Assembly (NCBI GenBank): GCA_024404275.1
Contig: JAKSQG010000001.1
Coordinates: 3,851-36,839, forward strand
Reading direction: 5' to 3'
Length of the DNA: 32,989 nucleotides
DNA from: Clostridia bacterium
GTDB taxonomy: Bacteria; Bacillota; Clostridia; Christensenellales; Aristaeellaceae
The notes under the pieces were generated by a model that saw only the letters and a list, made by a program, of their open reading frames with translations, was not told where the DNA came from and ran no database searches. This document shows positions 2,276 through 24,760 of the stretch, piece by piece (the first letter of the stretch is position 1; every line of letters starts with the position of its first letter). Position numbers and translations under genes: made by a program.

Positions 2276-3073
2276 TCACTTTGCCCCATCGGCCTTCGGC
2301 AGCGGAGCTCTCTCCAGCGCGCCGATAAAATCGCGGATATAGTCCGCCATCGCATCCAGCATTTCCACGCCCCATTCGCGGGTGGCATTCGTCGGCACAT
2401 CGCTTCCCATGCCGTGCGCCAGCCAACCGTTATCCGTAATGCTGTTCACATGACGCGGCACCGTAACCATACCGCCTTTGAATTCCACACTCGTCCATGA
2501 AGTGCTGGGCAATTCATCCGAGATATCATTACGGATGCACTCGCCAAGGGTCAGATACTCACTGTGGATCAGCGTGGGATCTACTGCCATCACACCCGCA
2601 GTTTCTTCGGCGCCGCCGTGGCCGCCCTTCCATTCCGGACGGATCTGCCCCGCGATCAGCCACCAGTTGACGATGGCGAGATAGCCGCCGCGCTCAAACA
2701 CTTTGATGCCCACCTGCTCGATGGATTTGACGTTGCCGCCATGACCATTCAGAATGATGAAACGACGGAAGCCGTATTCAAACAATTGGTCGCAGATAGT
2801 CTGCAGAACTGCCCGCAATCCTTCCACACCCAATGACACGGTACCGGCAAAGCCGCGCAGATCATCGGTCGCACCATACGGCAGCGTCGGGGCGATCACC
2901 ACATCGGGAAAACGCTCCTCCAGCAGCTCCGCGATACGGTTCGGTATGATCGTATCCGTTCCCAAAGGCATGTGTTTTCCGTGGCTTTCGAGGCTGCCGA
3001 CAGGGATGACGACAGTATCCTTCCGTGAAAGATATTTTTCCACATCCGGATAGCTCATTCTTTCCAGAAACAT
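2276..3073 (-). CDS. Creatininase-family metal-dependent amidohydrolase
   Basis: 265 aa with family motifs VIPVGSLESHGKHMPLGTD, IILNGHGGN, GGHGGAEET. RBS AGAGAGGAA upstream. Stop TGA. Confidence 0.75.
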   Translation of the reverse strand: MFLERMSYPDVEKYLSRKDTVVIPVGSLESHGKHMPLGTDTIIPNRIAELLEERFPDVVIAPTLPYGATDDLRGFAGTVSLGVEGLRAVLQTICDQLFEYGFRRFIILNGHGGNVKSIEQVGIKVFERGGYLAIVNWWLIAGQIRPEWKGGHGGAEETAGVMAVDPTLIHSEYLTLGECIRNDISDELPSTSWTSVEFKGGMVTVPRHVNSITDNGWLAHGMGSDVPTNATREWGVEMLDAMADYIRDFIGALERAPLPKADGAK

Positions 3074-3091
3074 CGCTATTCCTCTCTTTGC

Positions 3092-4450
3092 TTACAAGGA
3101 TGCGCCGTTGCTTTCAATCACTGTGCGGTACCATGCCGCGCTGTCCTTGGGAATGCGGCGGCAATCATCCGCATAATCCACATAGACCAGTCCAAAGCGG
3201 TCATTATAACCGTTTGCCCACTCGTAGTTATCCATCAGGCTCCAGGCAAAATATCCACGCACATCCACGCCGTTTTCCGCCGCACGGCGCAAAGCCAGCA
3301 GATAGCGGTTCATATAATCCTGACGGTTCGGATCATGCACTTTTCCGTCCAGCGAGATGGCATCGTGACAGGACATGCCGTTTTCGCTGATGACGATCGG
3401 CGTATGGTACCGCTCATACAGGAAATACGGTCCCCAATACAGGGCATCCGGCTGCACCGACCACTGAATACCGGTCTTGGGATGACCGCGCTGCGGCAGC
3501 AGCATTTCCCAGCCCTCGGCGTTATCCGCGGCACGAATGACATCACCATTATAAATATTCTGGCAATAATAATCCAGCGGCTGACAGATCTCCTTCAGGT
3601 CTTTCTCCCAACCACGGGGCAGGTATTTTTCCAGGCGGCGCAGTCCATCTTCAGGATAGGAACCAAGCAGCGCAGGATCGCTCCACCAGGAAGTCGACCA
3701 TGTCCAGTCACCGGAACCCGCATTGAAATAACGGCGGCGCGCCGCGGCAATATCTTCCGCGCTGCTGCTTGCGGGAATGGCTGCGTTTCCGCACGGTGCG
3801 TAGCTGACACGGGCATCGGGCACATTGGCACGGATGATTTGAACAGCACGTCCATGAGAAAGCAATACATGGTGGCTCATCGGCACAAGGGATGCGTCAT
3901 AGAGCTTCAGACCCGGCGCATGCGCACCGATGCCGTAGCCAAGACCGATAAAGCACTGCGGCTCATTGAACGTAATGTAGTCCTTTACACGATCCCCGAA
4001 ATGTTTGGTGACCGCATCCACATAGTCACAGAACCACTTGCTGCTGTCAGGGTTCTCCCAAGCGCCCTTTGCCTGCAGGGCAGAAGGATAATCCCAATGG
4101 AAAAGGGTCATGAAGGGACGAATATTCCACTTCAGCAGTTCATTGACCAGCTTGTCATAAAACGCCAAACCACGGGGTTCCATGCGTCCCGTTCCTTCCG
4201 GAAAGAGGCGGGACCAGGAAACGGAAAAGCGATAATTGCGGATGCCCAGATCATGCATCAGCTTTACATCCTCTTCCACCCTGTGGTAATGATCGCAGGC
4301 AACATCACCGTTATGATCCTGAAAAACCTTCCCGGGCGTGTGTGAAAAATCATCCCAGATGGAACGGCCGCGGCCGTCTTCATTCCAGGCACCCTCGATC
4401 TGATAAGAAGCCGTGGCGGTGCCCCAGATAAAACCATTTCTGAAACCCAT
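3092..4450 (-). CDS. GH1 beta-glucosidase / 6-phospho-beta-glucosidase family
   Basis: 452 aa with GH1 signatures FIWGTATASYQIEG, acid/base ITFNEP, nucleophile VISENG. RBS GGGAGGAAAA. Stop TAA. Confidence 0.9.
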   Translation of the reverse strand: MGFRNGFIWGTATASYQIEGAWNEDGRGRSIWDDFSHTPGKVFQDHNGDVACDHYHRVEEDVKLMHDLGIRNYRFSVSWSRLFPEGTGRMEPRGLAFYDKLVNELLKWNIRPFMTLFHWDYPSALQAKGAWENPDSSKWFCDYVDAVTKHFGDRVKDYITFNEPQCFIGLGYGIGAHAPGLKLYDASLVPMSHHVLLSHGRAVQIIRANVPDARVSYAPCGNAAIPASSSAEDIAAARRRYFNAGSGDWTWSTSWWSDPALLGSYPEDGLRRLEKYLPRGWEKDLKEICQPLDYYCQNIYNGDVIRAADNAEGWEMLLPQRGHPKTGIQWSVQPDALYWGPYFLYERYHTPIVISENGMSCHDAISLDGKVHDPNRQDYMNRYLLALRRAAENGVDVRGYFAWSLMDNYEWANGYNDRFGLVYVDYADDCRRIPKDSAAWYRTVIESNGASL

Positions 4451-4525: not shown

Positions 4526-6385
4526 TTACTCTTTTACGCCGCCGAGTGCAACACCGCGGATGATGAATTTGCTCAGGCACAGATACACGATGATCACAGG
4601 CAGAATGGACAGTGCGATCATCATATAGGTCATGCCCTGGTCCAGACTGGCGGGATCCTTGCCGCGCAGCGTGGCAATCAGGATCGGCAGGGTCTTCTTG
4701 GTCGGGTCAGAACCGGGAATAACAATGGCGGGAACGAAGTAGTTATTCCAGGAGTTGACAAAACTGAAGATGGCCTGCACGGCAATGGCGGGTTTGGTAA
4801 TGGGCAGCACGATGCGGTTGAAGGTGCCAAACTCGCTGCAGCCGTCAATGCGGGACGCTTCAACGATCGCCATCGGCAGTGCGGAATCCATGTATTGCTT
4901 CATGAAGAAGAATACAGTCGGAGCCGCCATGGCAGGCAGAATCAGCGCAAGATAGGATGTGTACCCTTCCGTCCAGCCAAAGCCGCGGATCAGATCGATG
5001 AAACCGAGGGTGCTGACCTGGGTCGGAATCATCATCACCAACAGGATGAAGCTGAACACAAAGTTCTTGAGCTTAAAGTCATAGGCGTGGATGGCATAAG
5101 CCGTCAGAGCGGAAACGTAGGTCGACAGGCCGGCCACGCTCAGTGAAATGATCAGGCTGTTCAGCATACCGTACCAAACCGGCAGATCCTGCTGCGCCAT
5201 CAGCTTATCCCAGTTGGCCTTGAAGTTGGTACCGGGCAGAAGGCTGATACCGCCGATGATCTCGTTATTGGTGCGGGTGCAGTTGATCATCAGCAGATAG
5301 AAGAAGAACAGGCACAGGAAGGACAGAATGCCAAGGACAGCATAAGCCAGAATGCGGCGAACATGGATGAAGCCCGCCAACAGCGTGATGCCTGTCATGA
5401 CCGCTACGATACTCAGGATCAGACCGACGATGAGAATCGTGGAGACGGTAGATGCACTTGCGGAAACTGCCTCATCCAAAGCAGCAAAGGCTTCAGAATA
5501 GCTTTCCGCTCCGTTCTTGCTTTTGAATGCATCAAGCTCTTCGGCGGCTTTTTTGCCGGATTCAACGGCGGTCACCACGGCAATATCCGCTTTATCCGCT
5601 TGCTTGGCCATCGAGGTATAAGAGGTGGTGATACCGACATCGCAGTCGCTCTTGGTGAAGCCGGCGGCGTTTGCATACACAACCGCGGTAATAAACGCTG
5701 CCAGAGCGGCAACGGCGATGATAATCTGCAGAGCGGCAATGCCCTTTCGTTTTTTCTCATCCGCTTTGCCGACAAAGAACGCCGAGATTCCCAGCAGCAC
5801 AGCCAGCACAGCCGCAACTACTGCCATGATGACCACTTTGCTGCTGCTATCCTGTTTTTCAGCCAGGTTTTCTTCCCCGAACTGTTTGAAGGATACGCTG
5901 CTTTCTTCAATCTTCTTCAGCTTGTTGGTTGCAATGGTCAAAGCACTGTTATCTTTTTTGATCACGCCCGCCAGGTTGCCAAAGGCTGCTTCGGCGTCCT
6001 GATCGTTTTCGAAGAAACCGCGAACTGCCTGCTCCGCTTCTGCAATGGCTGCGGCAAAGCCGTTCTTTTCTTCTTCGGTTGCAGCGGCATCACGATTGGC
6101 ATACAGCTGAAGCAGTGCATTCTCAGCTGCCATTTTGCCGTTATTGAATTCAATCGTAGCCCGATAGGCCGCCGCATCGCTGTCATTGCGCGCATCGCTG
6201 AAGACCGCCAGATTGGTCAGAAAATCGGTGGTTTCTCCCGCAAGGAGGCCCCGGACGCTGATACCGGCCATCACCGCGCAAATGAGCATCAGCACAGCAA
6301 CGACTGCCAGTACGGCACGGCAGGAGCGTACGCGTTTACGTTCTGCCTGTGCGGAGGAGGAAACGACATCTGTAAGTCTGCCCAT
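4526..6385 (-). CDS. CUT1-type sugar ABC transporter permease (MalG-like) with ~335-aa N-terminal extension
   Basis: 619 aa. The C-terminal ~280 aa is a standard permease core with EAA loop EASRIDGCSEFGTFNRIVLPITKP. The N-terminal part is Ala-rich with additional hydrophobic helices. Its ATG shares one base with the upstream TAA (TAATG). Stop TAA. Confidence 0.85.
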   Translation of the reverse strand: MGRLTDVVSSSAQAERKRVRSCRAVLAVVAVLMLICAVMAGISVRGLLAGETTDFLTNLAVFSDARNDSDAAAYRATIEFNNGKMAAENALLQLYANRDAAATEEEKNGFAAAIAEAEQAVRGFFENDQDAEAAFGNLAGVIKKDNSALTIATNKLKKIEESSVSFKQFGEENLAEKQDSSSKVVIMAVVAAVLAVLLGISAFFVGKADEKKRKGIAALQIIIAVAALAAFITAVVYANAAGFTKSDCDVGITTSYTSMAKQADKADIAVVTAVESGKKAAEELDAFKSKNGAESYSEAFAALDEAVSASASTVSTILIVGLILSIVAVMTGITLLAGFIHVRRILAYAVLGILSFLCLFFFYLLMINCTRTNNEIIGGISLLPGTNFKANWDKLMAQQDLPVWYGMLNSLIISLSVAGLSTYVSALTAYAIHAYDFKLKNFVFSFILLVMMIPTQVSTLGFIDLIRGFGWTEGYTSYLALILPAMAAPTVFFFMKQYMDSALPMAIVEASRIDGCSEFGTFNRIVLPITKPAIAVQAIFSFVNSWNNYFVPAIVIPGSDPTKKTLPILIATLRGKDPASLDQGMTYMMIALSILPVIIVYLCLSKFIIRGVALGGVKE

Positions 6386-7347
6386 TATTTGTTTCCTCCT
6401 TTCATGGACGCCAGCTGACGCTGCTTCTGCATTTGACGGGAATCCTTATTGAGATAGTTGAACATGAACATGCTGATGACGGCGGTAATGACAAACAGGA
6501 TCACCGACAGCGCGCCGCCCATGCCGTAGTTCTTGGACTTGCTGATGTAGTTGTTCAGCAGCATGATGAGCGTCATGCTCTCACGGTTGGGGTTGCCAAC
6601 GCCGTTGGTCAGAATCTGCGGAACGTCAAACATCTGCAGACCGCCGATCATTGAGGTGATCAGCATATAGCTGAGAATCGGCTTGATCATCGGCACGGTG
6701 ATGCGCCAGAAGGTATCCCAGGCATTTGCACCGTCGATCTGTGCCGCTTCAAACATGCTGTTGTCAATGCCCATCACACCGGCCATCAGGATGATGGTGG
6801 TATTGCCGAACCACATCATGAAGTTCATGGAGCCAACCAGACCGCGTACCGTTCCGGTATAGCTGAGGAAGCGCACGCTGTCGATACCGACCGAGTTGAG
6901 CACGCTGTTCACCGGTCCGCGATCAGAGAAAAGCGCGAAGAAGAGCATGGCAAACGCCGAGGCCATGATCATGTTCGGCAGATAGATCACCGTTTTGAAA
7001 AAGGCCTGTCCCTTGATTTTGAGGGTCAGATCGGTAAACCACACCGCCAGCAGCATGGAAATCACCAGCTGCGGCACAAAGCCGATCAGCCACATCACGG
7101 CGGTATTGCTGATAAACTTCAGCAGGTCATAGCGAGTGAAGATATCAACAAAGTTCTGGATGCCCACAAAGTTAGGGCCTACTGCCTTCAATCCGCCTTC
7201 GAAATAGTATTCAAAGAAGGAATAATAGAAGGTTTTCACCAGCGGGATGAGCGTGAACACCGCAAATGTTGCAAAGAAGGGAATCAGGAAAATGTATCCC
7301 CATTTTGCATAGCTGACGGATTTTCTCTTTCGGGTTAGTTTCGACAT
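6385..7347 (-). CDS. CUT1-type sugar ABC transporter permease (MalF-like)
   Basis: EAA loop FEAAQIDGANAWDTFWRITVPMIKP and multiple TM helices. The track start is GTG 7359; the ATG at 7347 (MSKLTRKRK...) is better spaced from GAAGGTGG. Stop TAA. Confidence 0.85.
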   Translation of the reverse strand: MSKLTRKRKSVSYAKWGYIFLIPFFATFAVFTLIPLVKTFYYSFFEYYFEGGLKAVGPNFVGIQNFVDIFTRYDLLKFISNTAVMWLIGFVPQLVISMLLAVWFTDLTLKIKGQAFFKTVIYLPNMIMASAFAMLFFALFSDRGPVNSVLNSVGIDSVRFLSYTGTVRGLVGSMNFMMWFGNTTIILMAGVMGIDNSMFEAAQIDGANAWDTFWRITVPMIKPILSYMLITSMIGGLQMFDVPQILTNGVGNPNRESMTLIMLLNNYISKSKNYGMGGALSVILFVITAVISMFMFNYLNKDSRQMQKQRQLASMKGGNK

Positions 7348-7391
7348 GCCATTAGCCACCTTCTCTTCGTGTTGGTCAAATTCCGTTCTTC

Positions 7392-7532: not shown

Positions 7533-8786
7533 TCAGAAGGACAGCTCGGGATGCTTTTCGAGCATCACGGTGTAGAAGTTGTTCCAGGCGGTGTCCAGAT
7601 CAACGATACCGTTGAAGTAGTCATGCATGGCGTTCTGGATCTGCTCGGTGCAGGTCTGATCATACATGGTGGACTTGGCGCGGTTGATGTTCTGAGCATT
7701 GGCCAGCAGCACGCTCACGTAGTTCTGGCCGCCCAGGAACGCATCACCGAAAGCGGGATCGTTGGCGAAGCCTTCCATAACGGAAACGCTGTTGGTGAAG
7801 TCGGACTTTTCCTTGACGATGGTGGTCAGAACGTCCTTGTCGATGGTCATGGTCTTGATGATGTCAGCAACCAGAGCTTCGTTATCGGTGCCCTTGGCAG
7901 CGCAGATCCAGGTGCCGCCCCAGGAGAAGCCAACGGGGCCTTCGCAGACAGCCCAGTCACCGGCAGTACCGGCGCCCATGGAGTAGTCGAAGAACCAGGC
8001 GGGTCCGAAGTAGCAGAAGACCTTGGAATCATGAGCCATGTCAGCGGACCAGTCGGGATCCCACAGCTTGGTGCCGTTGTTCCAGCCGTTTTCGGTGAAC
8101 TTTTTGGTCTGGGCGATCCAGGCTTCCACGGCGGCGTCCTTCTGAATCTTGCCGTCGACGACCCAGGAGGTGCTCATGTTGTCGGTGAAGGTACGATAGG
8201 TGTCATCATAACCGGAAACCATCTTGATGCCGGCATCGGCCATCATTTCGGCCACAGCTTCGAAGGACTCCCAGTCGCACAGCATTTCCTGCACAGTCTC
8301 GGGATCATCGGTGCCCAGCACTTCCAGAGCCAGGTCACGGCGATAGATCAGACCGGCGGGGCAAGCCTGCCAGGACAGACCCTTGATCTTGCCTTCGGCG
8401 TCAGTCATGATGTCCAGGGTGTACTGATACATATCGGCGATGTCTTCGGCGGTGATGCCCAGATCGGCGATATCATAAGCCAGATCCATGTACTTCACAG
8501 CGTAGTCGGCTTCCACCAGGAAGATGTCGACCTTCTTGTCGGCGGGAGCAGAATCCTGAGCCTGCAGAGCGGCATCCAGCTTGTTCTGATAGTTGTTCTC
8601 GGCGTTGGGCTCTTCGATCCAGTTGACGGTCACGCCTTCGGGAACGGTGTAGTAATCGGTGAAGCGGGTCTTCCATTCATCGTTCCAAACGAAGATGTTC
8701 AGAACAGTTCCTTCGTCAGCGAAGGCCACAGCGCACAGGCTGAGCATCATCGCAGCGATCAGGAGAGCGGAAATGAGTTTCTTCAT
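7533..8786 (-). CDS. ABC transporter extracellular solute-binding protein (sugar, family 1)
   Basis: 417 aa with signal peptide MKKLISALLIAAMMLSLCAVAFA (possible lipobox LSLC). Sits upstream of the two permeases. RBS AAGGAGG. Stop TGA. Confidence 0.8.
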   Translation of the reverse strand: MKKLISALLIAAMMLSLCAVAFADEGTVLNIFVWNDEWKTRFTDYYTVPEGVTVNWIEEPNAENNYQNKLDAALQAQDSAPADKKVDIFLVEADYAVKYMDLAYDIADLGITAEDIADMYQYTLDIMTDAEGKIKGLSWQACPAGLIYRRDLALEVLGTDDPETVQEMLCDWESFEAVAEMMADAGIKMVSGYDDTYRTFTDNMSTSWVVDGKIQKDAAVEAWIAQTKKFTENGWNNGTKLWDPDWSADMAHDSKVFCYFGPAWFFDYSMGAGTAGDWAVCEGPVGFSWGGTWICAAKGTDNEALVADIIKTMTIDKDVLTTIVKEKSDFTNSVSVMEGFANDPAFGDAFLGGQNYVSVLLANAQNINRAKSTMYDQTCTEQIQNAMHDYFNGIVDLDTAWNNFYTVMLEKHPELSF

Positions 8787-8825: not shown

Positions 8826-9836
8826 TTATTCATGATTGGGGGCTGCCAGCGTCTGCCCAGGCAGGTAGCAGCAGGGAACGGTCTCGATCTCGGGGAAGGT
8901 CACTTCCGGGTGTTCCACCAACTCGATCAGTTTTTGGGCTGCCGCTGCACCGATGGCTTCGGTATCCTGACGGATGGTGGTAAGCGCCGGGCGGGTTCGC
9001 TGCAGCAGCGGCACACCGTCGTAACCGACAATGGAGATATCCTACGGAATGCGCAGACCTTTTTCACGTATGGCTTCAATGCCGCCCAGTGCGGCGTAGT
9101 CGTCCGGCATGAGGATGCAGGTGGGCGGTTCGGGAAGCTCCAGCATTTTTCTTACCTGATGACGGGTGCGAGCCGGGTTGTGATACTCGCTTTCGATCAG
9201 ATAACCATCGGGAATGTCCAAACCGGCATCTATCATCGCCTTGCGGTAGCACTTTACGCGGGCTGTGGAGACTGATTTTTCCGCGCCGTGGACATAGCCG
9301 ATCTTTTTGTGACCCATTGCAAGAATGTTCTGCATCAGCAGCTCCATACCCTGACGGTTGTCAGAACGGACGCAGCTGCGTTCCTGAAACAGATAGTCAA
9401 CGGTGACCAGCGGAATCTCGCTGCGTAAAAGCTCCTGTACCTGCGGATCTTCAAAGTGGCAGCATACGATGCATACACCGTCAAATTTCCGGCTCCGGCA
9501 ATGCTCCAGGATGGTACTGCCTGTGCTTGTTCTTTGGGAAATGAAGGTGATGTCATATCCGCGGGCTTCAGCCCCCATGCGGAACGCCTGCAGGATGGGA
9601 GAAAAGTAGCTGTGCGTCAAACCGCTTTCGGAGTCATCCGCATAGAGAACGCCAAGCGTGTAGGTTTTGCCGCTTCTGAGTCCCCGCGCAGCAGCATTGG
9701 GGTTATATCCCAGCTGAGCGGCCTTTTCCTTAACAATCCTGCGGGTCTCTTCATTCACGTCCGAGTAACCATTCAGGGCTTTGCTGACCGTGGATACCGA
9801 TAATCCGCAGGCAGCGGATAGTTCCTTGAGTGTCAT
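8826..9836 (-). CDS. LacI/GalR-family transcriptional regulator containing one in-frame TAG (9042-9044)
   Basis: Track pieces 9042..9893 and 8826..9014 are in the same frame. Direct reading gives ...AIREKGLRIP-TAG-DISIVGYDGVPLLQRTRPALTTIRQD... N-terminal HTH MTLKELSAACGLSVSTVSKALNG starts at ATG 9836. Read-through length is 336 codons, normal for the family. Stop TAA. Confidence 0.85.
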
Positions 9837-9856: not shown

Positions 9857-9868
9857 TAAATCGTTTTC
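9857..9868. promoter_or_regulatory. Imperfect LacI-type operator upstream of the lacI-family gene
   Basis: Minus-strand GAAAACGATTTA matches 10 of 12 positions of the perfect palindrome at 10001-10012. It lies 9 nt downstream of the putative -10 box. Confidence 0.4.
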
Positions 9869-10000: not shown

Positions 10001-10012
10001 GAAAACGTTTTC
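10001..10012. promoter_or_regulatory. Perfect palindromic LacI/CcpA-type operator
   Basis: GAAAACGTTTTC is a perfect 12-nt palindrome with a central CG, 10 nt downstream of the TATAAT box. It resembles the cre/LacI-family core consensus AANCGNTT. Confidence 0.6.
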
Positions 10013-10079
10013 TTTGAGAAAAGGCACTCTTCGCACCGTGCTTTTCGGTTATTCTTTCTTATCAGGAGGTAAAACCACA

Positions 10080-12503
10080 GTGGAATACGGTCATTTTGAC
10101 GATGCCGCCCGGGAGTATGTCATCACCCGGCCGGATACGCCTTCTCCCTGGATCAACTATCTGGGCAGCGAAGCCTTCTTCACCCTGATGAGCAATACCG
10201 GCGGCGGCTATTCCTTCTATAAAGATGCCCGCATGCTGCGCATCACGCGCTATCGCTATAACAACGTACCGCTTGACGCCGGCGGTCAGTATTTCTACAT
10301 TAACGACCATGGCACCGTCTGGACTCCCGGCTGGATGCCCGTACGCACCCCATTGGACCATTATGAATGCCGTCATGGTCTTGGCTACAGCAGTATCACC
10401 GGCGAGAAGAACGGCCTTTGTGTCAAGGAAACAGCCCTCGTCCCGCGCGGAAAGAATGCCCTGGTCACCCGGGTCGAACTGAAAAACGCTTCTGCTGAAA
10501 GCAAATGCTTCACCCTGACCAGCTTTGTGGAATTCTGTCTGTGGAATGCCCAGGACGATTCCACCAACTTCCAGCGCAATTTTTCTACCGGCGAGGTTGA
10601 AGTGGAAGGCAGCGCCATTTATCATAAGACCGAGTATCGTGAACGCCGCAACCATTATGCAGTGTATGCCGTCAATGCCCCGATCGACAGTTTTGAGACG
10701 GACCGTGACAGTTTCCTCGGCGCATACCGAGGATTCAACGATCCCCGTGCCGTTCTGGAAGGTGCAGAGAACAGCATGGCCAGCGGTTGGGCTCCCGTGG
10801 GCAGCCACCAGCTGAAGGTATCCCTCGCTCCTGGAGAAGAGCGTTCCTTCATCTTTGTGCTGGGCTATTGTGAAAACCCGCAGGAAGAAAAGTTCATCGC
10901 TCCCAATGTGATCAACAAAGCGCCCGCTGATGCGCTGCTCGCCGCTTTCCGTACCGATGATGATTTCGAAGCCGCTCTGGCGGAAATGAAAGCATACTGG
11001 AACGAGCTGCTTTCCATCTATCAGGTGCAGACCGGTGAATCCCGTTTCGATCGCATGGTCGGCATCTGGAATCAGTACCAGTGCATGGTCACCTTCAACA
11101 TGTCCCGTTCCGCCAGCTATTATGAAAGCGGCATCGGTCGAGGCATGGGTTTCCGTGATTCCACGCAAGACCTGCTCGGCTTTGTTCACCTGATTCCCGC
11201 CCGTGCCCGTGAGCGTTTGCTGGACATCGCCGCCACCCAATTCCCCGACGGCAGCGCTTATCACCAGTATCAGCCGCTGACCAAGCGCGGTAACTTTGAC
11301 GTTGGTTCCGGCTTCAACGATGACCCGCTGTGGCTCATCTTCGGCGCGGCTGCGTACATCAAGGAGACCGGCGATCTGTCGATCCTGCACGAATCCGTCC
11401 CCTTCGATAATGACGAATCGCTGGCGCAGCCTTTGATGGAGCATCTTCGCCGTTCTATCCACTATACTCTGGAGCACCTCGGTCCGCACAAGCTGCCGCT
11501 GATCGGCCGTGCGGACTGGAACGACTGCCTCAACCTGAATTGCTTCTCCGCTACGCCCGGTGAAAGCTTCCAGACGACCGCCAACTTTGAAAGCGGCATT
11601 GCCGAAAGCCTCTTTATCGCCGGCATGTTCATCGGTGTCTGTCCCGACTACGAAAAGCTGTGCCGTCTCTATGGCTGGAACGAGGAAGCCGATCAGGTCG
11701 CCGGTTGGAAGAAAGCCATGACCGAAGCCGTTCTGAAAGATGGCTGGGACGGCGAATGGTTCCTGCGTGCCTACGATGCCTACGGCAACAAGATCGGTTC
11801 TGACAGCTGTGAAGAGGGCAAGATCTTCATTGAACCGCAGGGCTTCCTGGTTATGGCCGGCGTTGGCGTTCAGGAAGGCTATGCTGTACGTGCCATGGAT
11901 TCCGTCCGTCATCACCTGCTCGGCGAGCACGGCGTGGCCATCCTGACGCCGCCGTACACACGTTATCATCTGGAACTTGGTGAAATCAGCTCCTATCCCC
12001 CGGGATACAAGGAGAATGGCGGCATTTTCTGCCACAACAACCCCTGGATCGTCATCGGTGAAACGGTGCTGGGCCGCGGCGGCAACGCATATGATGTGTA
12101 TGTACGCACCTGCCCCGCCTTCATCACCGATCAGAAGCTGCACCACACTGAACCGTATGTATACAGCCAGATGGTAGCCGGTCCCTATGCGCCGCGCAGC
12201 GGTCAGGCCAAAAACAGTTGGTTGACCGGTACCGCTGCCTGGACCTTCTACGCCGCCAGCCAGTCCATTCTTGGCATCAAGCCTGACTATGACGGACTGA
12301 TGATTGATCCCTGCCTGCCTGGAAATCTGACGGATGTGTCCATTACCCGCCGTTTCCGTGACAGCGTATATCATGTGCATATTGTCAACAAAGCCGGCAA
12401 CACCAAAGGTCAAATGAGCATGACCATGGACGGCATCGCCGTCAATGGCAATGTGCTGCCTGCCGTTCCCGGAGAGCATCAGGTAGAAGTCATCATGGCC
12501 TGA
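10080..12503 (+). CDS. cbp: GH94 cellobiose phosphorylase (or closely related beta-glucan disaccharide phosphorylase)
   Basis: Motifs typical of characterised cellobiose phosphorylases: [62 protein letters not shown]. The track start TTG 10014 is replaced by GTG 10080, 9 nt after AGGAGG, giving 807 aa. Stop TGA. Confidence 0.9.
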
Positions 12504-18556: not shown

Positions 18557-19933
18557 TTATTCCAGGGCATTGACCAATTGTTTAAAGATTCTGCCGCGCT
18601 GTTCATAATCGCTGAACTGATCAAAGGAAGCACACGCCGGGGATAAAAGCACATTTCCGCCGTTCACCGCCAGCTTTCTGCAGAGCTGCACGGTTTCGGG
18701 ATAATTTTCAGCGTGATAGAGCGCCGTGTATCCCGCCTTGACCAGTGAAGCCTCGATCTGCGGAGCGGTCGCGCCGCACAGCACGATCTTGTCAATCATA
18801 CCGCTCTTCATGATCTCCTCGGACAGCGCGTCGAAGGAAACATGCTTGTCCGATCCGCCGAGAATCAGCACCGTGGGCACGCGCATGGTCTGCACTGCCT
18901 TGATGGTGCTGTCCACATTGGTGCCCTTGCTGTCATTGTACCACTTGACGCCGTCCAGCTCACGCACAAACTCAATGCGATGCTCCACACCCTTGAAGGT
19001 CTTGAGCGCCATACGGATCACCGGTGCCGGTACGCCCGCGGCAAAAGCCATCATGGCCCCCGCCAGCGCGTTCTACAGGTTATGCGGTCCGGGGATATAG
19101 ATTTCTTCCGTTGCACAGATGAGGGTTTCCTCGCTCTTCCAGCGGATGAACATTTTTCCATCATGGACAAAAGCGCCGTTCTCCACTTCGTGCTTGGAAC
19201 TGAACCAGGCAACCTGGGAAGGAATCTTCTCCGCCATCGCGCGGCACCAGCTGTCCTCATAGTTGAGCACCGCCGTATCCTTTTCGGTCTGACGATCAAA
19301 AATGTGCTGCTTCACAGCGGCATAATTGTCCATCGTGTAATGACGGTTCAGATGGTCCTCCGTCACGTTCAGCACAGCCGCCACCGTGGGATGGAAGGTA
19401 TCCGTGGTTTCCAGCTGAAAGCTGGATACCTCCGCCACCAGCACATCCTCCGGCTTGCTCAGCATAGCCGCTGCCGACATCGGATAACCGATGTTGCCGG
19501 CCACATAAGCGATCTTGCCGAAGCCGCGGAAGATCTCCCCCAGCAGCGACACCGTGGTGGTCTTGCCGTTGGTGCCGGTCAGCGCCACCAGCGTTCCCTC
19601 CGCCAGCTGCGAAGCAACCTCGAGCTCGCCGGTCACGGAAATGCCCTTCGCCTTTGCCGCAAGTACAATGGGAGCATCAATGGCGATGCCGGGGCTGATG
19701 AGCAGCACATCGGTCTTGTCCAGCAGTTCTTCCGGCTTCTGACCGAGATACCATTCGCAGGGCAGGGCCTTGAGCGTACGGATGCTCTCCCCCAGCTGTT
19801 CTTCCGTCTTGCGGTCATTCAGCATGGGAACAGCGCCAAAGCGGCACAACAGTTCTGCCACAGCGACACCACTGCGCGCCATGCCGATGATCAGCACCCT
19901 TTTCCCTTGCCAATACTGTTTCAAATCGCTCAT
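18557..19933 (-). CDS. murD: UDP-N-acetylmuramoylalanine--D-glutamate ligase MurD containing one in-frame TAG (19073-19075)
   Basis: Track pieces 19073..19951 and 18557..19054 are in the same frame. Direct reading gives ...EEIYIPGPHNL-TAG-NALAGAMMAFAAGVPAPVIRMALKTFKGVEHRIEF... P-loop GTNGKTTT is present. Start ATG 19933 follows GGAGGATAAG. Read-through gives 458 codons. Stop TAA. Confidence 0.9.
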
Positions 19934-19947
19934 CTTATCCTCCGGAA

Positions 19948-20973
19948 TCAAAACCAGGCCAGCACGCTCAGCACGGCAATAACGCTGAGTACCAGCGTAA
20001 CCGCCGCGTACATCATCACAATCTGATTCTCATTCATGCCGCTCATCTCAAAGTGATGATGGATGGGCGTCATCTTGAAAATGCGCTTGCCATGGGTCAG
20101 CTTGTAGTAGGTTCTTTGCATGATGACAGAAACAGAGCTCATCACGCAGGTAAAGCAGATCAGCAGCAGCAGGAATTCCAACCGCAGCAGCACAGCAATG
20201 CCAACCATGACGCCGCCGATGAACATGCTGCCGGTATCGCCCATAAAAATCTTGGCAGGATGGCGGTTGAATTTGAGGAATCCCAGACACGCGCCCGTCA
20301 GTGCAAAAGCCACAGCGGCACTGCATTCACCCGCGTTGAGCAGGCTGCTTCCCGCGGATGCCATCAGCAAGCCCATTGCACCGAATGCAATCATGCCCAC
20401 CGCGGTCACGCTGGACAGAATGCCGTCAATGCCATCCTGCAGGTTGGCACTATTGGTCATGAACAGCACTGTCAAGGTAAGCAGCGGGATATAGAACACA
20501 CCCAGATTCCAGGTACTGTGGGTAAAGGGCAGAATGACCTCGCTGCCGAGCGTAAAATACGCCCAAACAGAGAACAACAGACCCACGATCAACTGACCCG
20601 CAATCTTTTGCTTCGGCTTCAGTCCCTCGTGATTCTTTTTGACATCCTTGATATAGTCATCGGTAAAGCCCACAGCCATGGAACCGATGGCCACAAACAG
20701 CAGCGCCCACAGGGTATTCTGCAGCGACCAGAAGGGTACCGCAGCACCTTTTTTACGCATGAGGCACACCACCAGTACGGTAATCATCACCGTGACAGGG
20801 CCTGTGACCACACCGCCCATGTTGGGCGTGCCCTTTTTGTTGAGGTGGCTCTGCGGTCCCAGTTCGTACATGGTCTGGCCGAATTTGAGGGCACGCAGTT
20901 TTTTGATACACACCGGCATCAGAAGCATCATCAGCGCAAAGCTCATTACCACGGCTTCAGCGGCATACAACAT
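19948..20973 (-). CDS. mraY: Phospho-N-acetylmuramoyl-pentapeptide transferase MraY
   Basis: 341 aa polytopic membrane protein with motifs GTPNMGG, DDYIKD, NLQDGIDG and PIHHHFE. RBS AAGGAG. Stop TGA. Confidence 0.93.
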   Translation of the reverse strand: MLYAAEAVVMSFALMMLLMPVCIKKLRALKFGQTMYELGPQSHLNKKGTPNMGGVVTGPVTVMITVLVVCLMRKKGAAVPFWSLQNTLWALLFVAIGSMAVGFTDDYIKDVKKNHEGLKPKQKIAGQLIVGLLFSVWAYFTLGSEVILPFTHSTWNLGVFYIPLLTLTVLFMTNSANLQDGIDGILSSVTAVGMIAFGAMGLLMASAGSSLLNAGECSAAVAFALTGACLGFLKFNRHPAKIFMGDTGSMFIGGVMVGIAVLLRLEFLLLLICFTCVMSSVSVIMQRTYYKLTHGKRIFKMTPIHHHFEMSGMNENQIVMMYAAVTLVLSVIAVLSVLAWF

Positions 20974-20985
20974 AACAGCAGCTCC

Positions 20986-22440
20986 TTATTGCTTGATTTC
21001 CTGCAAAAGTTCTTTTACGATCTGCTTTTCGTCAAAGGGATATTTCTTTCCACAGATCTCCTGATAGGTTTCGTGTCCTTTGCCCGCCAGAATGACGATA
21101 TCATTGGGCTGCGCGGTTTCCAGCGCGTGACGTATGGCGGCACGGCGGTTTTCAATCACCGTATATGGCCCCGTCGTCTGCTTGATTCCCTCTTCAATGC
21201 TCTGAAGAATCGCAAAGGGATCCTCACTGCGGGGATTGTCGCTGGTCAGCACACAGTAATCGGCCATTCTGCCGCCGATTTCGCCCATGATGGGGCGTTT
21301 ACCATGGTCGCGGTCACCGCCGCAGCCAAACACAGCAATGACCCGTCCTTTTGCAAACTGACGGACCGCTTTCAGGATATTTTCCAGCGCATCGGGAGAA
21401 TGTGAATAATCAAGCAGCACCTTGTAGGGAGTATCGGTGTCCAGCATCTACGCGCGTCCGGGAACTGCCCTGACCGCCTCCAGACCCGCGGCAATGGCTT
21501 CCAACCCGACGCCAAGTGCGGCCGCGGCCGAAGCCGCGGTCAGCGCGTTATACACATTAAAAATGCCGGTCATGTGCATATGCACATCACACTCACCAAG
21601 CTCGCCCATATGCAAGCAGAAGGCTACACCCTGCTCACTGATCTCAATATCACGCGCATAGCAATCCGCATTTGCGCGGATACCGAAAGTATGATAGGGC
21701 AGCACCGTATCACGGAGAATCTGCGCCGTGGTCTCCTCATCGGCATTCAGCACAGCATTGCGTGCATAAAAAGGCGTGAAGAAGATCTTCTTCGCCTCAA
21801 AATACTGCTCCATGGAACCGAAATAATCCAGATGATCCTGCGACAGATTGGTATAGCAGGCTACATCATACACCACGCCGTCCACACGGTGCATGGCAGT
21901 GGCATGAGCGGAAACCTCCATCACAACAGCATCCACCTGCTCATCCGCCATGCGGCGCAACAGGGACTGCAGCTCATCCGCCTCGGGCGTTGTCATATTG
22001 CCATGAATGGGACGATCGCCGATCATGTTGCCCGTCGTACCGATCAGGCCGCACTTCATACCGGCATGTTCCAGAATGGATTTGATCAGATAACTGGTCG
22101 TCGTTTTGCCCTTGGTGCCGGTGATGCCGACCATTTTCATACTGCGGGACGGATGACCGTACAACGCGGCACAGATGGGACCAAAGGCTTCACGCATATT
22201 TTTTACGCGGATCTGCGGCACATCGAGCGGCAGAAAGCGTTCCACTGCCAACGCCACAGCGCCGTTGGTCACTGCCTGCGCAGCAAAATCATGCGCATCA
22301 AAACGAGCGCCGGAGATACAGCAGAACAAGCCGTTTTCATTCTTCACACGGCTGTCCATCACCGGCAGTTTTACATCGGTATCGCCCTTCCGTTCCAGAA
22401 TCAGGGAACCGCATTCCTTTTCCAGATCGCTGAGTTTCAT
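20986..22440 (-). CDS. murE: UDP-N-acetylmuramoyl-tripeptide synthetase MurE containing one in-frame TAG (21448-21450)
   Basis: Track pieces 21448..22440 and 20986..21447 abut in the same frame: ...LEAVRAVPGRA-TAG-MLDTDTPYKVLLDYSHSPDALENIL... P-loop GITGTKGKTTT is present. Read-through gives 484 codons. Stop TAA. Confidence 0.92.
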
Positions 22441-22474
22441 GTCGGACCTCTTTCCGTCTGTTTGCGCACAAGCA

Positions 22475-22510
22475 GGCTGATGAATCTGCCTTATCTCGTG
22501 TTCATCAGCC
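22475..22510 (-). other. Stem-loop in the murE leader
   Basis: GGCTGATGAA (22475-22484) / TTCATCAGCC (22501-22510), a 10-bp perfect stem with a 16-nt loop, about 35 nt upstream of the murE ATG. Confidence 0.4.
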
Positions 22511-22521
22511 GCTTGATTCAG

Positions 22522-22556
22522 AAAAAAACAGCCGACCGGTGCCTTGCAGGCACCGG
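22522..22556 (-). terminator. Intrinsic terminator after the ftsL-like gene
   Basis: CCGGTGCC/GGCACCGG (22536-22556) followed on the minus strand by TCGGCTGTTTTTTT. Confidence 0.7.
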
Positions 22557-22571
22557 AAGGCGCATCAATGA

Positions 22572-23069
22572 TTACTTTGAAGCCTGCATGCTGGCGCCGT
22601 TCAGTGTGGTGCCGGGCCGTGTCGCAGGAGCATAGATATAATTGACTTCCATGGCATCCGCCTTGGTCATACCAAGATTCACAGCAAGCTTATCGATCAC
22701 ATTTTCCGCCGTTGCGTCGGCAATCTGCTGCTTCATGCCGTTGATCTGCCTCTACGCCGATTCTACCTCGGCATACAATGTACGGCCATCCTGAAGCAGA
22801 TGACCCTTTTTTTGCACCGCCCCGGCATAGAACATCAGCATTACCACTGCCAGCAGTCCTGCCGCAATCAAAAGCAGACGCAGCGGAACACGCCGTGCCT
22901 CGGCGGGACGGTTGGGCGCGACATAGGTGCTGCGCTCATCCATATCGCAGCACACATCGCCGCCCGGCATATAGACGTTTGAGCGTATGGTCATTTTTCT
23001 GCGGTCGGCGTTCCAGTAGCCTGCCTTTGTGTATGTATGCGTGCTGCCGGCCAGAGACATATGAATCAT
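22572..23069 (-). CDS. ftsL: FtsL/DivIC-like septum formation protein containing one in-frame TAG (22752-22754)
   Basis: Track ORF 22752..23069 ends at TAG. The same frame continues for 59 codons to TAA 22572-22574: ...TLYAEVESA-TAG-RQINGMKQQIADATAENVIDKLAVNLGMTKADAMEVNYIYAP... One TM helix (LRLLLIAAGLLAVVMLMFYAG), a coiled coil and the ...LGM... tail typical of FtsL. Start could be ATG 23069 or 23060. Confidence 0.7.
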
Positions 23070-23084
23070 ACCCTTTCTTTATTA

Positions 23085-23603
23085 TTATCTGGCGGCGATC
23101 TCCGCCTCAAAACTCAAAATATCGGGAGTTTCTTCCAGGATCTTTTCTTCTTCAAGGTCGGCTTCTTCCTGCTTCTTGATGCAGATATGAGAGCCGCAGC
23201 CCGATACATCAACGTCCCGGGCATCCTGCAAAAAGCGGGTGCGCAGTTTCTGCGGCAGCAGGATACGTCCCTGACCGTCGCACTCACAATCCTCGTAGGT
23301 ATACTTTGTAAAAAGATTGATGATTTTGATCATCCGCATATCCTTCTCCGCCAGCTCCAGCAGAGAGCAGTAGTACAGCTCCCATTCGCGGCGGGGATAT
23401 ACGGCAATGGCCTTGAAATCAGGCGTCATGCAGATGCAGAAGGAATCTCCCAAAGCATTTCTGAAAGGCGCGGGAACAATTAATCTTCCCTTTGCATCCA
23501 ATCCGTGCTGGTAGTCGCCGCGGAAGCCGCCACGCAGCAGATGGGCGTATTTCTGCAGAAGAGCATTCTGCCGCTCGCCCAGCTGTTCCAGCTTTTCGCT
23601 CAC
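23085..23603 (-). CDS. mraZ: Transcriptional regulator MraZ (with ~30-aa N-terminal extension)
   Basis: GDYQHGLDAKGRLIVPAPFR and the second half-repeat CDGQGRILLPQKLR. The nearest start upstream of the first motif is GTG 23603 after AAAGGTGGTGG (alternative GTG 23636). Ends with a triple TAA. Confidence 0.8.
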   Translation of the reverse strand: MSEKLEQLGERQNALLQKYAHLLRGGFRGDYQHGLDAKGRLIVPAPFRNALGDSFCICMTPDFKAIAVYPRREWELYYCSLLELAEKDMRMIKIINLFTKYTYEDCECDGQGRILLPQKLRTRFLQDARDVDVSGCGSHICIKKQEEADLEEEKILEETPDILSFEAEIAAR

Positions 23604-23664
23604 ACGCCCACCACCTTTCCGGTTTAAATCCACCACTTGGCTCTACTTTTTGGGATTTGCAACC

Positions 23665-24040: not shown

Positions 24041-24760
24041 TCAAATCTGGTTCTGTTCCCCACTTTCGGGTTCATCGATTCTCTTCAGCCTGAATCCAAG
24101 GGCGTCGCAAGACACCAGATGATAGCGAACCCCGCCTTGCACGCCGCTGAAGCCCGTGCGGATGGACGCGCCATGAAGGTGTCCATACACGCAATCGCGC
24201 ACACCATAACTGCTCAGCAGTTCGGAGACCTCTGTCGCTTCTCCATTTTCCGCCACCGGCGGATAATGAGTCATGGCTACCAGCGGTGCATCGGCATCCA
24301 GCGATCTGGCTTTGTCCAGCGACATTTTGAGCCGCATCAGTTCGCGCCGGTAGAGCCGCACATTTTCGACGTCCTTCTCACTGGACGGAAGCGTCCAGCC
24401 GCGGGAGCCGCAGAACAGCACGCCATTCAGTCTGACAGCGTCATTCTGTACCACGACCATCCCCGGTCCGACAATCTACCGTACCCTTGTCAGCGAACTC
24501 CACCAGTAGTCATGGTTGCCGCGAAGCATCACTTTCGTGCCGGGCAGCTCTGCAATCTCTTCCAGATCGTTCCGGGCATGCTCAAGCTGCATCGCCCAGC
24601 TGATATCGCCGGGAATCAGCACAACATCTTCTCCGGTCACTCGTTCGCGCCAGTCTGTGCGGATCTTGTCCCAGTGCCCTTCCCAGTGGGAACCGAACAC
24701 ATCCATCGGTTTATCGTCTCCCCCGGGGAGATGCAAGTCGCCAATGGCATAGATACTCAT
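24041..24760 (-). CDS. Metallophosphoesterase (calcineurin-like) containing one in-frame TAG (24476-24478)
   Basis: Track pieces 24476..24760 and 24041..24460 are in the same frame: ...GNHDYWWSSLTRVR-TAG-IVGPGMVVVQNDAVRLNGVLFCGSRGW... Motifs GDLHL, GDISW, GNHDYW and GHLH span both pieces. Read-through gives 239 codons. Stop TGA. Confidence 0.85.

Follow-up and report, generated by a model that had tools for sequence, protein, structure and literature searches.

A TAG codon inside the reading frame of a LacI/GalR-family transcriptional regulator raises the question of whether the repressor ends there, whether its gene is decaying, or whether the codon is translated. This question came from a stretch of 32,989 nucleotides (the window) of an uncultured Clostridia bacterium, which is represented by a metagenome-assembled genome (MAG) that is 75% complete and is referred to here as G000. 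The regulator gene is located on the minus strand at 8826-9836, with its ATG at 9836-9834 and a TAA at 8828-8826, giving 336 codons plus the stop. The initial annotation had placed the TAG at 9042-9044, within KGLRIP-TAG-DISIVGYDG, and this was confirmed as codon 265 on the minus strand, where it is found as CCG-TAG-GAT (Pro-X-Asp; CTA on the plus strand). The translation reads IREKGLRIP up to the TAG and DISIVGYDGVPLLQRTRPALTTIRQD after it. Gene calling with translation table 11 cuts the ORF off at codon 265, and the earlier estimate that truncation would cost about 72 amino acids was also correct, as 72 residues are removed if translation is terminated there.

The TAG is the sole lesion in the regulator gene. 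When the TAG was read through, residues 2-47 of the protein matched the LacI helix-turn-helix (HTH) domain (PF00356), and a match to Peripla_BP_3 (PF13377) extended up to residue 329, so that the alignment to LacI-family HMMs proposed in the initial annotation gave a domain architecture spanning the TAG. The read-through protein also aligned across the TAG to the solved, full-length CcpA, PurR and RbsR (query residues 2 to 308-322), covering positions 4-310 of the 332 residues of CcpA and 3-323 of the 330 residues of RbsR. The residue in the TAG column is Asn in CcpA, Gln in PurR and Glu in the closest ortholog, which was found in a sister species (JAZRWA01, a MAG that is 81% complete, referred to as G006). 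In the profile search, the regulator protein did not reach any equivalog cut-off.

The comparison with the sister species was informative for the whole locus, which is collinear between both genomes with 89% DNA identity over 7 kb. The G006 ortholog also has 336 codons, has no indels, shares 87% amino acid identity and stops at the same position. By the Nei-Gojobori method, dN/dS was 0.09 for the whole gene (dS of about 0.8). It was 0.07 before the TAG (codons 1-264) and 0.23 after it (codons 266-336), the latter value being based on only 71 codons. The higher value after the TAG (0.23 vs 0.07) fits a less constrained C-terminal subdomain, and the 71 codons downstream of the TAG are under purifying selection. 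Neither relaxed selection nor an accumulation of lesions after the stop, which are signs of a pseudogene, was seen against G006 (dN/dS of 0.23 and no indels). It had been suggested that a clearly decayed ortholog in close relatives would indicate ordinary pseudogenisation, and the opposite was observed, with an intact ortholog of equal length and a dN/dS of 0.09. The gene, predicted to encode a β-glucoside or cellobiose regulator, thus appears to be intact, neither truncated nor a pseudogene.

Codon 265, TAG in G000, is GAG in G006. At codon 140 the situation is reversed, with GAG in G000 and TAG in the G006 ortholog (contig C45 of G006; ELLHS-TAG-IPLV compared to ELLRSEIPLV in G000). One repressor gene therefore gives reciprocal TAG/GAG evidence in two species. 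Since the sisters differ in the position of the TAG, its behaviour is that of a neutral, drifting alternative to GAG and not that of a conserved control element.

Three other genes in the window, all on the minus strand, carry an in-frame TAG. These are murD (18557-19951; TAG at 19073-19075, codon 293), a gene for a MurE/MurF-type ligase (20986-22440; TAG at 21448-21450, codon 331) and a gene for a calcineurin-like metallophosphoesterase (24041-24760; TAG at 24476-24478, codon 95). In each of them, Pfam domains flank the TAG on both sides, and in the metallophosphoesterase the Metallophos domain (residues 1-197) spans it. At both Mur positions, G006 also has TAG, and the codon is GAA in G007, a congener that uses the standard code, is 97% complete and carries release factor 1 (RF1). 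Among the recognisable genes of the window, 11 of 22 end in TAA and the other 11 in TGA, and none of the 22 ends in TAG.

The two Mur genes belong to a dcw cluster in which the gene order is mraZ, a 165-aa ORF, the Mur ligase gene, mraY, murD, ftsQ, ftsA and ftsZ (including 20986-23636). The 165-aa ORF, located at 22572-23069 on the minus strand, had no family match and has a TAG in frame. Between the dcw cluster genes of the window, rsmH, ftsI, ftsW and murG are absent.

The pattern seen in the window extends to the whole genome. Using a codon-usage model trained on G000 to score the frames past stops, 62% of ORFs ending in TAG were followed by 50 or more further codons without a stop and with a coding-like score, compared to 7.6% after TGA and 17% after TAA. 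A second in-frame stop was found within 2 codons of none of the 106 TAG-ended ORFs, and within 5 codons of 3 of the 106, compared to 31% of TGA-ended ORFs with another stop within 5 codons. At most about three candidates for a genuine TAG terminator were present genome-wide, so TAG essentially never ends G000 genes. As an in-frame codon it is rare, with about 166 occurrences among 388,627 codons compared to 12,456 for GAG and 13,053 for GAA, corresponding to about 0.65% of Glu codons and about 0.04% of all codons.

A set of 73 well-supported in-frame TAG sites is spread over about 48 contigs. In 71 of them, both flanks carry a coding signal, and the other two are the sites in the Mur ligase and LacI genes. 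They are found in genes of every functional class, including essential ones such as those for MurD, the Mur ligase and FtsY-, ClpB- and Mfd-like proteins. The sites were searched as 61-residue segments in G006 and G007. In the 42 that aligned in G007, the residue was Glu in 30, Asp in seven, Lys in two and Arg, Tyr and Ile in one each, with neither Gln nor TAG at any of them. In the 65 aligned in G006, the codon was TAG at 21 and a Glu codon at 32 (22 GAG and 10 GAA), the remainder being Gln at six, all of them CAG, Asp at four, and Pro and Lys at one each. Amino acid identity did not drop after the TAG, being 94.0% upstream and 94.5% downstream against G006, and 69% and 71% against G007. Identifiable motifs at the sites also agree with Glu, such as the DEEQRFG box of the Mfd type (LLIIDE-X-QRFG), the GRDxEIR motif of the ClpB type and the histidine-kinase motif GIAPEDLPRVF.

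The codons around the TAG sites are not random. Pro precedes 18 of 71 TAG sites, compared to 5.4% before GAG and GAA (p = 3e-8), Leu precedes 15 of 71 (7.7% expected) and the next residue is Asp at 14 of 71 (5.2% expected). The LacI site (9039-9047, CCG TAG GAT) is an exact Pro-TAG-Asp. This bias could be due to mutational context, to slow decoding that is tolerated after Pro, or to a trace of an ambiguous stage. In G007, TAG ends 3 of 91 sampled genes, a small and non-random sample consisting of orthologs of TAG-bearing genes. It is possible that TAG was used sparingly as a stop even before it was captured.

A decoder for TAG was found in the form of a single tRNA with the anticodon CUA, detected by ARAGORN on contig C117 of G000 at 5836-5911. 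The gene is 76 nt long with an encoded CCA, stands alone and is followed by a terminator hairpin. It is 100% identical in G006 and was not found in the other 39 relatives searched. Its closest match is a tRNA-Glu(CUC), and it agrees with the tRNA-Glu(CUC) of the genus in the D-arm, the anticodon loop, the variable loop and the length. With the augmented D-arm of the Glu type and a G1-C72 pair, it does not resemble the tRNA-Gln of the genus. Its discriminator base is G73. An origin by point mutation from the resident tRNA-Glu(CUC) was considered and rejected. All of the stems differ from those of the resident tRNA (about 70% identity), and G006 retains the normal Gln(CUG)-Glu(CUC) tRNA pair, which together point to a diverged or acquired extra tRNA of the Glu type and not to a fresh point mutant. 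Upstream of the gene, synteny between G000 and G006 is kept (86% over 1.6 kb) and it breaks directly past the terminator, where a gene for a DUF3427 protein is located in G000.

Two other sources of a UAG decoder were examined. A phage origin of the tRNA was rejected, as IMG/VR held no Glu-type tRNA(CUA) matching the search pattern. Pyrrolysine was also rejected, with the best match to the PylS model reaching 23.8 bits against a cut-off of 178 and the tRNA being of the normal 76-nt Glu type; the 'Pyl' label given to it by ARAGORN reflects the anticodon only.

A pattern scan for the tRNA over 185,579 species genomes, a set that may leave out the records of G000 itself, returned no genomes other than G006 and one MAG of the Anaerolineae, apart from an archaeal match that proved false. 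The Anaerolineae MAG (DAOTVV010000020.1, 4380-4455) has a Glu-type tRNA(CUA) with a similar acceptor stem (GGCGCAT, compared to GGCGCGT here). It was considered as another recoded genome and rejected, as the flagellin and FliS genes near the tRNA still end in TAG, which makes a plain suppressor tRNA likelier on that contig. Eleven metagenome contigs carried other Glu-type tRNA(CUA) genes, the best of which matched 51 of 76 bases, and several of them were without an encoded CCA. Their hosts may include eukaryotes with codes in which UAR encodes Glu.

The second half of the system is the release factor. RF1 (TIGR00019) was not found in G000 or G006, where the only hit to the model was a cross-match to RF2 of about 226 bits. 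It was detected in all 14 of the other congeners, with full-length matches of at least 480 bits, over the cut-off of the family, in 12 of them and with fragments at contig ends in the other two. The corresponding region of G007 contains geneB, then prfA, then about 800 bp and a topoisomerase gene. In G000 (contig C79, 19025-19047) and G006, geneB is followed by about 20 bp and then the topoisomerase gene, with an identical junction in a region that is collinear between both genomes (92.8% over 2,052 bp). The deletion took out prfA together with the spacer of about 800 bp, in which no convincing ORF was seen (contig C40 of G007, approximately 2821-3752). As the syntenic junction is clean in both genomes, the absence of prfA is not an assembly gap, and as it is identical, the deletion is placed in their common ancestor. 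RF2 is a normal SPF/GGQ factor.

The synthetase side shows no corresponding change. GluRS is missing from the 75%-complete assembly of G000. The single GluRS of G006 still has the Arg with which the Thermus enzyme reads C36 (the Arg358 equivalent), indicating no visible adaptation to A36. An adapted GluRS was therefore rejected as a component of the system, since a second GluRS was absent in G006 and the Arg358 equivalent is unchanged. A second, weaker synthetase match is probably a GlnRS-like gene.

Taken together, codon 265 is very probably an ordinary Glu sense codon, meaning that the repressor is made at its full length of 336 aa and that the genetic code has changed in both G000 and G006. 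The common ancestor of both would have lost prfA, leaving no release factor that recognises UAG, and the stand-alone Glu-type tRNA(CUA) is presumably charged by the single GluRS. With UAG lacking a release factor and having a Glu-type decoder, codon 265 would be translated, most probably as Glu, giving the expected sequence GLRIPEDISIVGYDGVPLLQR around the site, and TAG would come and go in genes as an infrequent alternative to GAG. The translation of TAG and the charging with Glu are deduced here from genome sequences, and Glu is assigned because the comparative alignment and the type of the tRNA both point to it. There may be a minor share of Gln insertion at TAG. The initial annotation had left both termination and decoding open. 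Decoding is the part that stood, given the purifying selection, the GAG in G006, the tRNA(CUA) and the loss of RF1, and termination is not supported.

Ordinary pseudogenisation, by which the repressor is truncated at residue 264 and the sugar locus derepressed, has in its favour the end of the table 11 ORF at codon 265 and a codon-usage score of the regulator slightly below that of typical genes (0.09 vs a cut-off of 0.12), but it is scarcely credible given a single lesion, an ortholog of equal length and the low dN/dS (0.09, and 0.23 after the TAG) at a dS of about 0.8. Essential genes carry TAGs likewise, and with RF1 deleted, normal release of a truncated product at UAG is impossible. The deregulation of the locus that had been predicted in case of termination is therefore not supported, the repressor being intact by comparison with G006. 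An artefact, whether from sequencing or assembly errors or from contamination of the bin with DNA of a recoded phage or eukaryote, is just as hard to believe. The bin has an estimated contamination of 3.6%, and contamination is a known hazard in the inference of stop codon usage from MAGs (preprint 10.64898/2026.04.02.715157). Against this, the independently assembled G006 shares 21 of the TAG positions and also the junction left by the prfA deletion. The TAGs occur in housekeeping genes of the chromosome, those of the dcw cluster among them, over about 48 contigs, and the tRNA was not found in IMG/VR. Another explanation is a regulatory device, in which slow or limited decoding of UAG tunes the dosage of the repressor, as the initial annotation had also considered by coupling the repressor level to amber decoding. 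The rarity of TAG (about 0.04% of codons), the single tRNA gene and the non-random Pro/Asp context would suit such a device, but it is very improbable with the TAG at codon 265 here and at codon 140 in G006, and with TAGs in all functional classes.

A translation of TAG as Gln, or as a mixture of Glu and Gln, by mischarging through GlnRS or in a manner similar to code 15, is also unlikely, although somewhat less so. E. coli GlnRS favours G73 and C34-U35, which are both present in the tRNA(CUA), and amber suppressor tRNAs are prone to mischarging with Gln. A GlnRS-like gene is probably present in the genus, based on the second, weaker match, the C36-reading Arg of GluRS has not changed, and 6 of 65 sites are CAG in G006. 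However, Gln was found at none of the 42 aligned sites in G007, compared to 30 with Glu and seven with Asp, and in G006 Glu (32 sites) outnumbers Gln (six sites), even though CAG and GAG are equally common and C-to-T changes occur more readily. The tRNA(CUA), with its Glu-type D-arm and G1-C72 pair and its lack of resemblance to the tRNA-Gln of the genus, also speaks for Glu. Recoding of TAG to Gln by a code-15 phage was rejected on the same count (Gln at 0 of 42 sites in G007), on the chromosomal nature of the genes and on IMG/VR being without a matching tRNA.

If codon 265 is read as Glu, the full-length repressor would act on the sugar locus surrounding its gene. Divergent from the regulator, on the plus strand at 10014-12503, is a gene for a GH94 phosphorylase of the cellobiose/cellodextrin phosphorylase type (Glyco_hydro_94, 1e-148; GH94 supersandwich). 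Translation probably begins at a GTG located about 60 nt inside this ORF, as the RBS and the GTG are kept in G006. On the minus strand, 40 nt downstream of the regulator gene, starts a gene for a 417-aa putative lipoprotein, possibly the solute-binding component of an ABC transporter (7533-8786), which has a signal-like N-terminus. Since this protein had no match in Pfam or NCBIfam, its solute-binding role is a putative assignment. It is followed by two genes for ABC sugar-transporter permeases (6385-7359 and 4526-6385, BPD_transp_1 in both) and by a gene for a GH1 β-glucosidase (3092-4450; TIGR03356 BGL, 524 bits, over the cut-off), the last sugar gene of the same-strand cluster. The locus looks like an uptake system for cellobiose or β-glucosides.

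Between the regulator and the GH94 gene, a perfect 12-bp palindrome, GAAAACGTTTTC, is located at 10001-10012 as a candidate operator, and it is kept in G006 inside an otherwise variable spacer. An imperfect copy with two mismatches, TAAATCGTTTTC, lies in the leader of the regulator gene at 9857-9868 and is a candidate autoregulatory operator that is also kept in G006. With up to two mismatches, three matches to the palindrome were found compared to 1.4 expected, which is not above chance, and the copy at 9857-9868 is not significant alone. Position and conservation in G006 are what suggest an operator function for both. The GAAAACGTTTTC palindromes are the most likely binding sites of the repressor, which would thereby control the divergent GH94 phosphorylase gene and its own operon, consisting of the regulator, the binding protein, the two permeases and the GH1 β-glucosidase. 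It resembles the LacI/GalR repressors such as CcpA, PurR, RbsR and those of the CelR type in its N-terminal HTH, its type-I periplasmic-binding-protein fold and the position of its gene beside sugar genes, and the candidate operator, if functional, would share their palindromic, CG-centred form. Unlike its relatives, it has one Glu encoded by TAG.

The genome as a whole can be compared to several known cases of codon reassignment. In bacteria, UGA is reassigned to Trp in Mycoplasmatales, some endosymbionts and some Eggerthellaceae, and to Gly in Gracilibacteria/Absconditabacteria (tables 4 and 25). These reassignments are confined to clades, and in them the stop is captured by a matching tRNA and the specific release factor is lost (PMC13462651). 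The same logic of a cognate tRNA and release factor loss in a restricted clade applies here, but it concerns UAG, with RF1 lost instead of RF2 and Glu as the amino acid, and the genome is not AT-rich (57% GC) and not obviously reduced. Peritrich ciliates (table 30) and Blastocrithidia (table 31) likewise read UAG as Glu by means of a tRNA-Glu with an anticodon complementary to the stop (PMC12153298). Those codes are eukaryotic and nuclear, UAA is reassigned too and eRF1 is altered, not deleted. Unlike in such UAR codes, only UAG has changed here, and UAA is still a major stop (11 of the 22 window genes).

Gut phages that use code 15, such as crAss-like and Lak phages, also combine in-frame TAGs with a suppressor tRNA, in the gut ecosystem of Bacillota and Bacteroidota (PMC9523058, PMC10879173). 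In these phages TAG encodes Gln and recoding is stage-specific, whereas here housekeeping genes of the chromosome are concerned, the amino acid is Glu and the cellular RF1 is deleted. In archaea in which every TAG encodes pyrrolysine, TAG has likewise been lost as a stop genome-wide, which is hard to see from coding density (bioRxiv 10.1101/2024.09.30.615893, cited in PMC13695967). That code requires the Pyl machinery, and here PylS was not found in the model search and the tRNA is of the Glu type. An engineered parallel is the recoded, RF1-deleted E. coli (PMC11903333), in which RF1 is likewise absent and UAG can be assigned by means of a CUA tRNA. That strain was engineered, and here a natural lineage is concerned, in which the ancestral TAG stops were purged or are read through.

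The literature to late 2026 describes UGA reassigned to Trp or Gly in bacteria, TAG to Gln in phages and all TAGs as Pyl in some archaea. Up to 2026, we found no UAG reassignment in a bacterial chromosome in the literature or in large screens, and a screen of about 2.7 million assemblies does not list a bacterial TAG reassignment. The logic of release factor loss with a cognate tRNA is known, and the combination of UAG, RF1, Glu and a bacterial chromosome with 57% GC is new.

To summarise, it is likely, with nearly the same confidence as for codon 265 itself, that G000 and G006 represent a natural clade of free-living (gut-type) Clostridia in which RF1 has been deleted and UAG reassigned to Glu by a diverged tRNA-Glu(CUA). 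As only about 0.65% of Glu codons are TAG and the sisters have one third of the sites in common, this would be a young case in which the order of events in codon capture can be studied. The strong Pro-TAG-Asp bias may reflect the way in which new TAGs come to be tolerated during an ambiguous intermediate stage. Gene calling with table 11 splits or truncates dozens of genes in the recoded genomes, such as those of the repressor and the Mur ligases, and the public protein sets for the clade are wrong as a result. At present, three codes are recognised in bacteria (tables 11, 4 and 25). If true, the code described here would be the fourth, with the first reported sense reassignment of UAG in a bacterial chromosome, and would be a natural counterpart of the engineered, RF1-deleted E. 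coli.
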